Positions 22,144 to 26,787 of a stretch of DNA of 64,000 nt are shown here, one piece after another; positions within the stretch are counted from its first letter, which is position 1; each line of letters begins with the position of its first letter. A program made the translations under genes and the position numbers. Under the pieces are notes generated by a model that was not told the origin of the DNA, made no database searches, and saw nothing but the letters and a program-made list of their open reading frames with translations. The stretch is from Candidatus Hermodarchaeota archaeon (lineage in GTDB: Archaea > Asgardarchaeota > Thorarchaeia > Thorarchaeales > Thorarchaeaceae). The DNA lies in assembly GCA_048885865.1 (NCBI GenBank), contig JBHLLF010000018.1, positions 1-64,000 of the forward strand, given 5' to 3'.

Positions 22144-22668
22144 ATGGGAGCATCATCCTTAAAACGAGCATTTGTACAACCCAGCTTGGGGATACTAGTG
22201 ACCGATGTCCAAGATTCATTTGACCAATTGATCTCCCTCGCGATTCAGAGGGAGGAGGAAGCCTACGACTTCTACATGAAAGCTTCTGAGAACATCGAAT
22301 TGCCTTCGTCGAAGCAGTTGCTATTGGAGTTGGCAAAACAGGAGGAAGGCCACAAAAGGAAGCTCATGAACGCCCTCGGTGAAGGAGTCTGCGAAACGTT
22401 CACCTGCTCAACCATTGAGGAATTCGAGGGACACGACCTCTCGAAGTATCTCATAGAAATTCCTCTCGAGCCTGGTTCGACCTCTCAGGATATTCTCATC
22501 GTAGCTATAAAGCGAGAGGAAGGCGCGCGTGACTTCTACAAGAACCTCTCAGAGTTGACCACAAGTACATCTCATAGAACGGTCTTTGAGAGCCTCGCAA
22601 AGGAGGAGCAGGATCATAAGGATCGTCTAGAGAGCATTTACGACGAACAGATTCAACCATGGATGTGA
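22144..22668 (+). CDS. Ferritin/rubrerythrin-like protein
   Basis: Duplicated AIxREE...FY...LAxxExxH motifs; the start may be GTG 22198. Confidence 0.85.
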   Translation: MGASSLKRAFVQPSLGILVTDVQDSFDQLISLAIQREEEAYDFYMKASENIELPSSKQLLLELAKQEEGHKRKLMNALGEGVCETFTCSTIEEFEGHDLSKYLIEIPLEPGSTSQDILIVAIKREEGARDFYKNLSELTTSTSHRTVFESLAKEEQDHKDRLESIYDEQIQPWM

Positions 22669-22710: not shown

Positions 22711-24006
22711 TTACGTCTTGTGTAGTTTTTGGGCAGCTATGAATGTCAGGCCGTTTTCCGTCAAAACACGAGCTGTCCGATTCACAGCATCGTGTTTGCA
22801 CATATAGTTGTGAAGTAGAGCTGGCATATCACCAGACTCAATGATTTCATTCTTTGCTCTGAAGTAGTCAAGAATGTCACTCGGATGTTCGCAGGCACAT
22901 TCAATTTCAGGAGTTCCGCCTTCGTGTTTAGCACTGATATTCTTGACATGGTCTGCCAATTCTACAAGTTCATCAAGTCGGTCGTAGGGCTGTCTTACAA
23001 TACTCTTGTATGTTTCAGTTATGTGATGCTCAATTCTGACCACATTCTCAAATCCGAAGTCTTTCCTGGCATATGCAGATAGCTCTATTGTCTCATTGTT
23101 TACGCTGTTAGATAGATTGTACCCAATCAGTGGCGAAGTGCCGTCATCTCTGCTGAAGAGTTTGGCTGTCATCAATGTCCACAGACTTGCATATGGATTG
23201 TCATTTCCCATGAAGACGCTGATCTTGAACTCCATATCAATGCCCAGCTTATGCATCATGTAACCCACGAGTACGCTTCCTGGATTGATATTGAGTACTT
23301 GTTTGACCCCATACTCCGTGTAATAGTGAAGGTACTCATCAGCCCACTTGAGAGCAAAATCATTGGGCATTCCAACTCCACCGAAATAGCCGGTGATTGT
23401 GTCTGGCCCTCCTAGGTGGATATTGGCTGGTGCACCATCAGGTCCTGGAAATGTGCCTTTTGTATCTAAAGTCTCGACGTAAGAGGAGTCTACGATCTGC
23501 ATCGCTGCGGCAAAAGCAATCACATCGTTGTCATCACTCTGCTCCTGCATGTTTCTTACTCGGATAAAACGGCCGGGCATAAGCTCCTGCTTCTCAATGG
23601 ATCGCTTCGCCTCCTCTATGACCCATGGGAAGTATTGGCACGCACTGATCTCAAGTGTGACTGCAAAACTCTCATCAAAATCCATGGAGTCAGCTTTATC
23701 CCCCAGAATCTTCCTCCGATAATCAAGAATTGTGATGAATGAATCGCTATCACGTTTCTCTTGAAGCCACTGGAGGTCTTTCACATAGGGAGAGTCTTTC
23801 TTCTCCAATTTGGCCATTAGGTTCTCGAGCCTACGAGCCTCATTCGCCTTCTTGTTGATTTCGTCAACTCCGCCATGCTTCTCAATGACATTTATGATAC
23901 CACTAATCAGAGGGTTGTCTTCCTTGAGAAGAAACTCGTTAATCTCGTGCAGGCGCTGCACATCTATCTCAAGCTTCTTTCTATCAGTCATACCGAAAAC
24001 TCCCAA
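22711..24006 (-). CDS. Conserved-looking hypothetical protein of unknown function
   Basis: 431-aa ORF with enzyme-like motifs (HLGGPDTITGYFGG, RIEHHITE, SAKHEGG). Confidence 0.75.
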   Translation of the reverse strand: MGVFGMTDRKKLEIDVQRLHEINEFLLKEDNPLISGIINVIEKHGGVDEINKKANEARRLENLMAKLEKKDSPYVKDLQWLQEKRDSDSFITILDYRRKILGDKADSMDFDESFAVTLEISACQYFPWVIEEAKRSIEKQELMPGRFIRVRNMQEQSDDNDVIAFAAAMQIVDSSYVETLDTKGTFPGPDGAPANIHLGGPDTITGYFGGVGMPNDFALKWADEYLHYYTEYGVKQVLNINPGSVLVGYMMHKLGIDMEFKISVFMGNDNPYASLWTLMTAKLFSRDDGTSPLIGYNLSNSVNNETIELSAYARKDFGFENVVRIEHHITETYKSIVRQPYDRLDELVELADHVKNISAKHEGGTPEIECACEHPSDILDYFRAKNEIIESGDMPALLHNYMCKHDAVNRTARVLTENGLTFIAAQKLHKT

Positions 24007-24153: not shown

Positions 24154-24747
24154 TCATTCAAGAGGCGTTTCGATCTGCTCATTCTGAACTAAAGTTAGGT
24201 CCTCTTCTTCAAACATATACAAAGTGTCTTGGAGAAAGCTCCTTGCAACAGGCCCTACGATTGCGGTGACGATTGAACCAACTGCCACTTGAAGCCAGTT
24301 TGCTGTAAGCAACTCAGCGAGTGCAGCTCCATATCCGTACAAAGGAATCTCTGCGAGGAAATATCCGGTCATCATCACAAATGAGGATACGATAAGTCCA
24401 ACCACATCCCACCTTGTCAATAGACTAGCACTTCTGGCTCGACTACTAAAGAGCCCCATCACCAACCCTTCACAGCCCTTTACAACCAAAGTGATTGGAG
24501 CGAAATGGACATAGCCCAAGATGACATCACCCATTGCTGAACCCACTCCCCCAGCGATGAAGCCGCCGAGAGGGCCAAGCAAGAGACCGCTTAGCATCAC
24601 TAGTGCATCTCCGAAATTGAGAAAACCTGAACTTGCGGGGAGTGGAATGGCAATCACTATTGTGGCAATTGTGGTCAATGCAGTTAGAATAGCCAATAAT
24701 GCCACAAATAGAGTGTTACTTCGCATTTTGGGTTTGAAGAACTCCAT
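24154..24747 (-). CDS. ECF transporter S-component (HmpT/PdxU-like family)
   Basis: IPLPASSGFLNFGD, GGVGSAMGD, APITLVVKGCEG; 5-6 TM segments. Confidence 0.88.
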   Translation of the reverse strand: MEFFKPKMRSNTLFVALLAILTALTTIATIVIAIPLPASSGFLNFGDALVMLSGLLLGPLGGFIAGGVGSAMGDVILGYVHFAPITLVVKGCEGLVMGLFSSRARSASLLTRWDVVGLIVSSFVMMTGYFLAEIPLYGYGAALAELLTANWLQVAVGSIVTAIVGPVARSFLQDTLYMFEEEDLTLVQNEQIETPLE

Positions 24748-24804
24748 TGTGTATCATCCTCCATTCATCATATTCTTCTCTGAAAGAAGGATATATAATT
24801 TTGA

Positions 24805-24818
24805 GCCTATATATAGGC
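24805..24818. promoter_or_regulatory. Perfect 14-bp palindrome GCCTATATATAGGC, candidate operator
   Basis: Lies between the TATA-like ATATATAA (24791-24798) and ATG 24829, in a divergent promoter region. Confidence 0.55.
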
Positions 24819-24828
24819 ATGATAAACG

Positions 24829-26322
24829 ATGTCACTTCAGTCAGGTTTTAGGTGTACTGGGTGTGGAAAGGAGTTTGTTCCGGAGAAATACATTAATTCT
24901 TGTCCTATATGCGGACAGATTCTAGAAGTGACCTATGACCTAGGCAGGGCAAGAAACCAATTCACTCCCAGGAAGATCAGAAATAGAGGGCCAGCAATTT
25001 GGAAGTACCTTGAACTACTTCCAATTCGAAGTGAAGCGAATATGGTTTCACTTGGAGAGGGAGGAACCTACTTACACCGGTGCGATGGGCTTGCAAAGGA
25101 CTTCGGAATTGAGTGTCTTTACCTGAAAGACGAAACAACAAATCCGACGGGAGCGTTTATTGATCGTGGGACCGCAGTCGAAGTGTCTGCAGCGAAAGAG
25201 CATGGGTTCAAATCTGTTTGCTGTGGCTCTACTGGAAATCTTGCTGCGTCACTTGTTGCCTATGCTGCTCGGGCTGGTCTTGAGAGCAAGGTGTTCATCG
25301 GTCAAAGAGGGAATGTGGATATCGGCAAGTTCTACCAGATCCTAGCCTATGCAGCAGATGTAGAGATAGTCAGAGATCATGAGGAGGCAGTGTCAATGGC
25401 ACGCCAAGAGGGTAGAAGAAGCCACCTCATAACATCGTCCAACCCACATTTCATGGAAGGAGAGAAGACAACTGTCTATGAAACATGTGAACAACTCGAT
25501 TGGACTGCGCCGGATTGGATTATTGCTCCAATGGGAAATGGCGGTCATGTGTCAATGATATGGAAAGGGCTAAGGGAGCTGGAGCAAATCGGGCTGATAG
25601 ATGCTTCACACACTAGGATTATCGGGGCTCAGGCGAGCGGTTGCGCACCAATTGTTGAGGCATTTAAGAGGGGGGTGAAAACCATCACTCCACCTTCTTC
25701 TGCATCTACGGTAGCTTTTGACATATGCGTAAGGAATCCAGTTTGTGGAAGTACAGCACTAATGGCAATTGAGGAGTCAGGCGGAATAGCTATTTCTTCC
25801 TCCGATAGAGAAATACTAGAAGCTGTGAGGCAGCTCGCAAGACGAGAAGGCGTCTTCGCAGAACCATCTTCAGCTACTACTATAGCGGCTTTACAGAAAC
25901 TCATTCACTCAGGAAAGATAGAACGGGGAGAGTCTATTGTTTGTGTCATTACTGGAATGGGGCTCAAGTACCCCGAGATAGCAAGGACCTTTGTTAAGGG
26001 GACTGGGCCTCTTGAACATCTTCTCAGTAGGATAGAGGGACGTAAAGTCACAACGAAACTAGGTCAGACCAAAATTCGCATTCTGCAGATACTCTCTAAG
26101 TGTGAATCTTACGGATATGGAATATGGAAGGCTCTGTTGGATGAGTATGGAATGGACCTTAAAATCCCGAGCATATACCAGCACCTTACAGAGCTGACCA
26201 GTAGCGGACTGATTATTAATACGCGAGTTGAGAAGACGTATGAAAACCGTCAAAGAAGCTACTATGCATTGACTGAGAAGGGAAAGTGGACTCTAAATCA
26301 AGTTAGAAAATTGGAAAGGTAG
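24829..26322 (+). CDS. Threonine-synthase-like protein (PLP Lys replaced by Ile) fused to a C-terminal PadR wHTH
   Basis: Zn ribbon, SLGEGGT, NPTGAFIDRG (canonical SFKDRG), STGN, PMGNGG, EPSSA, TGMGLK; C-terminal ILQILSKCESYGYGI..SIYQHLTEL..GLI..RSYYALTEKG. Confidence 0.85.
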   Translation: MSLQSGFRCTGCGKEFVPEKYINSCPICGQILEVTYDLGRARNQFTPRKIRNRGPAIWKYLELLPIRSEANMVSLGEGGTYLHRCDGLAKDFGIECLYLKDETTNPTGAFIDRGTAVEVSAAKEHGFKSVCCGSTGNLAASLVAYAARAGLESKVFIGQRGNVDIGKFYQILAYAADVEIVRDHEEAVSMARQEGRRSHLITSSNPHFMEGEKTTVYETCEQLDWTAPDWIIAPMGNGGHVSMIWKGLRELEQIGLIDASHTRIIGAQASGCAPIVEAFKRGVKTITPPSSASTVAFDICVRNPVCGSTALMAIEESGGIAISSSDREILEAVRQLARREGVFAEPSSATTIAALQKLIHSGKIERGESIVCVITGMGLKYPEIARTFVKGTGPLEHLLSRIEGRKVTTKLGQTKIRILQILSKCESYGYGIWKALLDEYGMDLKIPSIYQHLTELTSSGLIINTRVEKTYENRQRSYYALTEKGKWTLNQVRKLER

Positions 26323-26406
26323 GTACAGGTAGCGTACGTAGGAGAACTGTTTTATGTCATAACCTCGATGAGCTTACTATCCTACTGCTTTGAGGGAGGA
26401 AAGCCA

Positions 26407-26787
26407 ATGTCAAAGAAATGGATACAGACCGATGATTGGAAGAACGAGAAGCACGTGCCGTCTATCGATATAAAGAAGGTCGAAGATGGGAAGGCCTATG
26501 TCAAAGTAAAAGTTGGCAAGGAAATTCCACATCCAAACACGACTGCACATCATATCAAGTGGTGTGACCTCTTCTTCTGGCCAGAAGGAGCTAAGTTTCC
26601 CGTAGAGATTGGATACTGTACTTTCGATCACCACGGTGAATCTGCTGAGGGTCCTGATAGTAGTGGCATTTACAGCGAGCCAATTGCCAAGTTCGTCTTC
26701 AAGACCGACAAACCAGGTACGTTGATGGCTACTGCGTATTGCAACATTCATGGTCTCTGGAAGAGTGAAGCTGAGCTGAAACTCTGA
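26407..26787 (+). CDS. Superoxide reductase (neelaredoxin/desulfoferrodoxin-like)
   Basis: EKHVP, HPNTTAHHI, YCNIHGLW; ATG 26407 follows GGAGG. Confidence 0.92.
   Translation: MSKKWIQTDDWKNEKHVPSIDIKKVEDGKAYVKVKVGKEIPHPNTTAHHIKWCDLFFWPEGAKFPVEIGYCTFDHHGESAEGPDSSGIYSEPIAKFVFKTDKPGTLMATAYCNIHGLWKSEAELKL

Follow-up and report, generated by a model that had tools for sequence, protein, structure and literature searches.

A candidate vitamin B6-responsive regulator combining a threonine-synthase-like pseudoenzyme with a PadR domain in Asgard archaea

Results

Organisation of the locus

The window analysed here—64,000 nucleotides of contig JBHLLF010000018.1 from a Candidatus Hermodarchaeota archaeon (GenBank assembly GCA_048885865.1)—contains a pair of divergent genes separated by a spacer of 81 nt: an open reading frame of 497 aa on the forward strand (24829–26322) and one of 197 aa on the reverse strand (24154–24747). 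Pfam assigned residues 73–376 of the longer protein (25045–25956) to the fold-type II pyridoxal phosphate (PLP) domain PALP (E 1e-64) and residues 418–490 (26080–26298) to the PadR-family winged helix, with the match spanning profile positions 1–74 of 75 (E 6.6e-12; 45.7 bits against a gathering cut-off of 27). The N-terminus carries a Cys4 ribbon (C9, C12, C25 and C28; 24853–24912), which is also found in archaeal unfused threonine synthase (ThrC). The shorter protein matched ECF-ribofla_trS (E 5e-33) and is encoded as a solitary ECF S-component.

The spacer holds a perfect 14-bp palindrome, GCCTATATATAGGC (24805–24818), and, 6 nt from it on the ECF side, a conserved TATA element on the reverse strand, TTATATAT (24791–24798), the function of which is inferred: it probably serves as core promoter for the ECF gene, and perhaps for both genes. 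A Shine-Dalgarno-like sequence, GGAGGATGA (24754–24762, reverse strand), was read ahead of the ECF gene, again by inference. A sequence-only reading of this window had described a Schiff-base lysine replaced by isoleucine at 25159–25161, a PadR fusion, a divergent ECF gene and the 81-nt spacer, all of which were confirmed from the sequence and by Pfam; the palindrome and TATA element that it reported are likewise present and proved to be conserved across the clade.

Directly downstream of the ECF gene, in its usual place, lies the gene for a conserved protein of 431 aa that has no Pfam family (22711–24006, reverse strand), which is ~73–97% identical across Thorarchaeota and has Atlas matches mainly to unnamed bacterial clusters. 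A hairpin followed by a T run (24089–24071) may mark a boundary between the ECF transcript and this gene. A rubrerythrin-like gene (22144–22668) and a desulfoferrodoxin/superoxide reductase gene (26368–26787) border the locus in most Thorarchaeota, which is probably lineage synteny.

Residues kept and lost in the enzyme domain

The 497-aa protein exceeds the curated thresholds for both PRK08197 and TIGR00260 and retains the STGN, GNGG, EP and TGxGLK motifs, as the earlier reading had noted. Its AlphaFold2 model (mean pLDDT 86.9) had ThrC as best match, with Foldseek returning an E-value of 2e-30 and a TM-score of 0.87 by target against 2zsj. Ile111 (codon ATT, 25159–25161) aligns with the lysine of SFKDRG in solved threonine synthases (K61 of Thermus thermophilus). 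Among 120 close homologues, of which those with names came for the most part from Thorarchaeota, this position was occupied by Ile in 103, Leu in 16 and a gap in one, so that a search for orthologues keeping the lysine returned 0 of 119. This conservation rules out an assembly error and, because Lys is absent while Ile or Leu is kept, Ile111 cannot be put down to recent pseudogene formation either.

Residues of the PLP pocket (D112, R113, G136, N137, G236, G238, E345, T375 and K380) are all kept and are invariant or nearly so among fused proteins. By contrast, the equivalents of T. thermophilus Thr88, Asn154 and Arg160, which we take to be the substrate-phosphate-binding residues, are Leu138 (25240), Thr202 and Phe208 (25450–25452); the original residues are absent from the fused forms and kept by 11–12 of 14 unfused ThrC proteins. 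The STGN loop of the fusions is partly kept and differs by clade. No replacement catalytic lysine was found among the conserved lysines at 100, 167, 213, 246 and 380, which are equally present in normal ThrC and so do not represent a new catalytic substitute. Set against an active ThrC, the protein has the fold-type II PLP fold and lacks both the Schiff-base lysine and the substrate-site residues. As judged from aligned residues, the fusions have retained the cofactor pocket but not the substrate site; absence of enzyme activity is inferred, without assay data. Two further thrC-like genes with an intact SFKDR lie elsewhere in the genome, answering the sequence-only reading’s call to look for a separate thrC.

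Phylogeny and distribution

We gathered 180 distinct fusions of ThrC with a winged helix from Asgard archaea, Bathyarchaeia, Nitrososphaeria and others. In a FastTree phylogeny of the enzyme domain only, rooted on unfused ThrC and with one partial sequence excluded, all 180 formed one clade (support 1.0). A group with Ile, Leu, Met or Val at the lysine position (74 rows) had support of 0.98; the remainder made up an Arg group, inside which Lys-bearing groups (of 11 and 7) were nested twice. Lysine loss is conserved among close homologues, with their Ile or Leu; the picture is refined by the wider family, which also has Arg in 86 members and Lys in 18. The Lys-type fusions are still without the substrate residues.

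NCBI names the Arg- and Lys-type relatives threonine synthase (NF004170/PRK05638). PRK05638 spans both domains and appears to describe Arg-type relatives; on fused proteins the label is very probably a misannotation. Its cut-off was passed by none of 14 control genomes, and a class-level search around one genome (G164) at a strict threshold recovered that genome alone. TK0259, considered as a Thermococcales member of the family, was rejected as its gene sits in a Phe/Tyr cluster; the other Thermococcales locus tags considered were wrong or not found.

One genome (G122; loci L241 and L253) has two regulator–ECF pairs (64% and 69% to the query), reflecting duplication or bin contamination. In 11 Bathyarchaeia loci (L116, L155, L171, L173, L177, L179, L180, L184, L189, L198 and L200) an intact thrC faces the fused gene head-to-head, and several of these loci have hom-, ACT- or ilvD-like genes close by (hom and ilvD being read from sequence only); this layout is possibly a trace of origin by duplication.

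Gene neighbourhoods

The same HmpT/PdxU2-like ECF S-component accompanies the fusion at about 78% of loci, lying within 2.5 kb at 54 of 71 Ile/Leu-type, 71 of 86 Arg-type and 15 of 18 Lys-type loci. Instead of the ECF gene, six loci spread over about five branches have pdxS(T) (divergent in four, downstream in two), and the two never occur together; at one of them (L175) pdxS-pdxT occupies the ECF slot of relatives, ahead of the same AIR-synthase-like gene.

Among solved structures, the S-component matched chain S of 4HZU best (E 1e-16, against 3e-3 for RibU). 4HZU is the HmpT/PdxU2 protein, and HmpT bound pyridoxamine by mass spectrometry, with pocket residues E41, H84, Q87, Y120, N140 and Q143 (PMC4860826). 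These map to D47, K90, E93, Y129, N150 and Q153, which are nearly invariant across 168 neighbours; five of the six are the same or conservatively replaced, the exception being His84, which is Lys in 167 of the 168, a difference that counts against the B6 assignment. We regard the protein as a candidate B6 vitamer transporter, its substrate being inferred from this likeness, without binding data. No pdxS was found in 61 genomes of the Thorarchaeota family, an absence consistent with dependence on B6 uptake; EcfT genes are present in genomes of this family.

Other genes recur in the same runs. An AIR-synthase/ThiL/HypE-fold gene lies downstream of the ECF gene (of pdxST in L175) at 57 Ile/Leu- and Arg-type loci (e.g. 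L166:8223–9233), and the present genome has a 43% identical AIR-synthase-family copy elsewhere (C3:28779–29822). A clear PdxK was not found in the present genome, which gave only a weak PF08543 match; the AIR-synthase/ThiL-fold protein is a candidate archaeal B6 salvage kinase. A GNAT acetyltransferase gene, sometimes with a radical SAM gene, occurs in the ECF-side run at loci L009, L014, L016, L017, L019, L022, L032 and L076, and an EamA transporter gene at two (L029 and L032).

Clade-specific palindromes

Perfect 14-bp palindromes number 242 in the genome against 218 expected, so rarity alone was rejected as grounds for significance, which rests instead on conservation. The palindrome is kept ahead of the regulator gene in close loci, and at least 9/10 of the clade consensus CCNATATATNGG was matched at 61 of 70 Ile/Leu-type loci against 12 of 1,678 in the background. 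Counted by target gene within the Ile/Leu clade, this motif (motif A) stands ahead of 42 of 55 ECF genes, four of five pdxS genes and 57 of 70 regulator genes, compared with nine of 623 others. In the Arg clade it precedes no ECF gene; there, a different palindrome, TAGTATAGTTNNAACTATACTA (motif B), is found ahead of 62 of 74 ECF genes and the single pdxS gene (1/1) against two of 672 others, lies just downstream of a TATA-like element and is essentially absent ahead of regulator or other genes. In comparative genomics, a motif that switches between regulator clades while staying with the target genes typically marks an operator. The consensus, however, came from the very loci in which it was then counted, and common descent makes these loci less independent than the numbers suggest.

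The spacing of 6 nt between palindrome and TATA element is fixed across the clade, with a variable intervening BRE region. A genome-wide search for the combined unit of TATA element and palindrome returned hits in 26 of 41 Thorarchaeota genomes and none with a reversed control. Among the 28 sites, 27 fell at the regulator–ECF gene pair and the 28th ahead of a GNAT gene, one that in other genomes separates the ECF gene from the operator. Separate operator copies occur ahead of GNAT in G122 (L254) and ahead of a radical SAM gene in L106. A motif scan of the present genome, which the earlier reading had proposed, gave one strong site (score 25, next 16.7), so the regulon here would comprise two genes; a wider one was rejected, the inspected matches at or below 16.7 being mostly within open reading frames or by unrelated genes. 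One such match (C14:59915) is intergenic, ahead of a fasciclin-like gene. The palindrome is best described as an operator-like motif: its tracking of the regulator clade was established by computation only, and DNA binding is inferred, without binding data.

Two further arrangements were seen: a third palindrome, CTTGTATACAAG, ahead of the ECF gene in Odinarchaeia-like Arg-type loci (L043, L044, L046 and L049), and three ATATAT boxes, 18–20 bp apart, in the divergent promoter of Njordarchaeota-like loci (L055, L060 and L096).

Discussion

Proposed mechanism

We consider it likely, with good though incomplete confidence, that the 497-aa protein is a pseudoenzyme one-component regulator that senses a B6 vitamer and controls B6 uptake and itself, its enzyme domain being a duplicated, catalytically dead threonine synthase. 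The sequence-only reading had already put forward such a pseudoenzyme regulator, and the conservation of lysine loss, synteny and palindrome supports it. Domain layout, loss of catalytic residues, synteny, clade-matched motif and the exchange of ECF for pdxST are computed; ligand, DNA binding, direction of control and the substrate of the S-component are inferred.

The regulator would act as a homodimeric transcription factor in which the dead ThrC domain keeps its PLP pocket and binds PLP, pyridoxamine phosphate (PMP) or PNP without a Schiff base, while the C-terminal PadR helix would bind the palindrome at 24805–24818. A modelled homodimer reached an ipSAE of 0.81 against 0.00 for the best control (20 of 30 solved homodimers and one of 23 monomers reached the mark set for homodimers), with contacts agreeing at 66% or more, pLDDT of at least 85 and confident contacts in the enzyme-like domain and following linker helices; this score may reflect likeness to solved ThrC structures alone.

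The candidate operator sits 6 nt upstream of the ECF TATA box, adjoining or over the BRE, and also between the TATA element and the regulator start codon, a repressing position from which autorepression is predicted. At low B6 the regulator would promote transcription of the S-component gene and limit its own, and ligand binding would switch both off, a logic mirroring that of bacterial PdxR. The least certain point is the sign of control at the ECF gene. Operators of RbkR, similarly placed some 5 nt upstream of the TATA box, are read as activating (PMC5397151), so activation is favoured, at only a little better than even chances over repression; activation in low B6 is barely more plausible than a block on TFB when B6 is high. 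In the Arg clade, the position of the operator downstream of the TATA-like element suggests repression.

Nature of the signal and other readings

The earlier reading had left open whether PLP or PMP, phosphohomoserine or threonine is sensed. B6 is strongly favoured on three grounds: pdxST can take the place of the ECF gene under one and the same operator, HmpT/PdxU2 is the closest match of the S-component, and no pdxS was found in the family; phosphohomoserine or threonine is disfavoured, since the substrate residues are lost and no operator stands ahead of thr genes. An amino-acid signal could survive in another form, as a PLP–amino acid external aldimine or an amino acid (threonine, serine or phosphohomoserine) together with PLP, linking uptake to amino-acid status. 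Fold-type II enzymes mutated to lack the lysine can hold external aldimines in place, and GabR uses PLP with GABA; the STGN carboxylate loop is partly kept, and the Bathyarchaeia loci place the fused gene beside an intact thrC. Such a signal nevertheless seems unlikely to us: that loop varies by clade, the Thr88, Asn154 and Arg160 equivalents are lost, operator targets are B6 genes only and motif B sits ahead of the ECF gene.

More doubtful still is a role in taking up some other micronutrient, for instance hydroxymethylpyrimidine (HMP), a precursor of thiamine, with pdxST adjacency incidental. HmpT-type S-components were first named for, and assigned to, HMP, one homologue is called ‘Thiamine precursor transporter HmpT’ in a source, and a ThiL-like AIR-synthase-family gene often comes next after the ECF gene. 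Against this, pdxST fills the same slot behind a clade-specific operator in both clades, the sensor has a PLP-binding fold, pyridoxamine is what HmpT bound (PMC4860826) and the common neighbour clusters, only a subset of which is annotated, showed no thi gene for biosynthesis.

We give slightly less credence again to an enzyme that is bifunctional or keeps residual activity—a trigger enzyme, as RbkR is, using another lysine or other chemistry, with regulation secondary—for which the NCBI label and the 18 fused relatives with Lys can be cited, but the conserved lysines are common to normal ThrC and the Lys forms are nested in the Arg clade without substrate residues. Least credible is that the palindrome merely reflects TATA boxes that overlap in a bidirectional promoter and is no operator of this protein: it contains TATATATA, could partly be promoter DNA and belongs to a class common in the genome, but its flanking CC and GG are 92–95% conserved, motif A does not occur in the Arg clade, where a palindrome of another sequence stands at the same target genes, and nearly all genome-wide sites lie at the regulator–ECF pair.

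Comparison with known systems

Beyond this locus, we lean towards, without being sure of, a broader interpretation: a widespread, undescribed archaeal family of B6 regulators, independent of PdxR and derived from a dead threonine synthase with non-covalent sensing of B6 phosphates, in which each of two subclades has a palindrome of its own, one upstream and the other downstream of TATA, possibly acting as activator and repressor, and the AIR-synthase/ThiL-fold protein is an unrecognised archaeal B6 salvage kinase. No published description of an archaeal B6 regulator or of the fusion family was found; most subscription papers were outside the search and a published prediction is possible. On this interpretation, many annotations as ‘threonine synthase’, NCBI PRK05638 among them, that are used in metabolic reconstructions of Asgard archaea and Bathyarchaeia would be corrected, and an ECF S-component common in archaea would gain a likely substrate.

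The regulator shares its fold with threonine synthase (TIGR00260, PRK08197) and differs by the lost Schiff-base lysine and substrate residues and by the PadR fusion. Among archaeal regulators, ThiR is likewise a vitamin regulator made from an enzyme domain. Like RbkR, the Asgard protein joins a helix-turn-helix to a metabolic enzyme domain and is associated with vitamin synthesis and uptake genes and with lineage-specific palindromes (PMC5397151). RbkR, however, is an active riboflavin kinase, and vitamin, fold and helix-turn-helix family all differ; without a homologous RibK or ThiN domain, the Asgard regulator is an analogue, not a member.

The closest functional parallel is with MocR regulators, whose helix-turn-helix is N-terminal and of the GntR type, and whose sensor is aminotransferase-like and of fold-type I, whereas the Asgard protein has a fold-type II ThrC domain without the Schiff-base lysine and a C-terminal PadR helix-turn-helix. 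Regulons of PdxR, in the MocR subfamily, contain pdxST, pdxU-type transport and often RimI/RimL acetyltransferases, with DMT transporters in PdxQ regulons, and MocR regulators are stated to be absent from Archaea (PMC5320631). Both systems pair a sensor derived from a PLP enzyme with a winged helix and point to B6 targets (here ECF, pdxST, GNAT and EamA genes); of the defining MocR features, the B6 synthesis and uptake targets are matched and the GntR helix-turn-helix and fold-type I sensor are not. On present comparisons, the Asgard regulator is of independent origin from MocR: a candidate archaeal B6 regulator with a defined putative operator and targets, in a group where MocR is reported absent, and a predicted example of convergence, in which another PLP fold has been recruited as a sensor.
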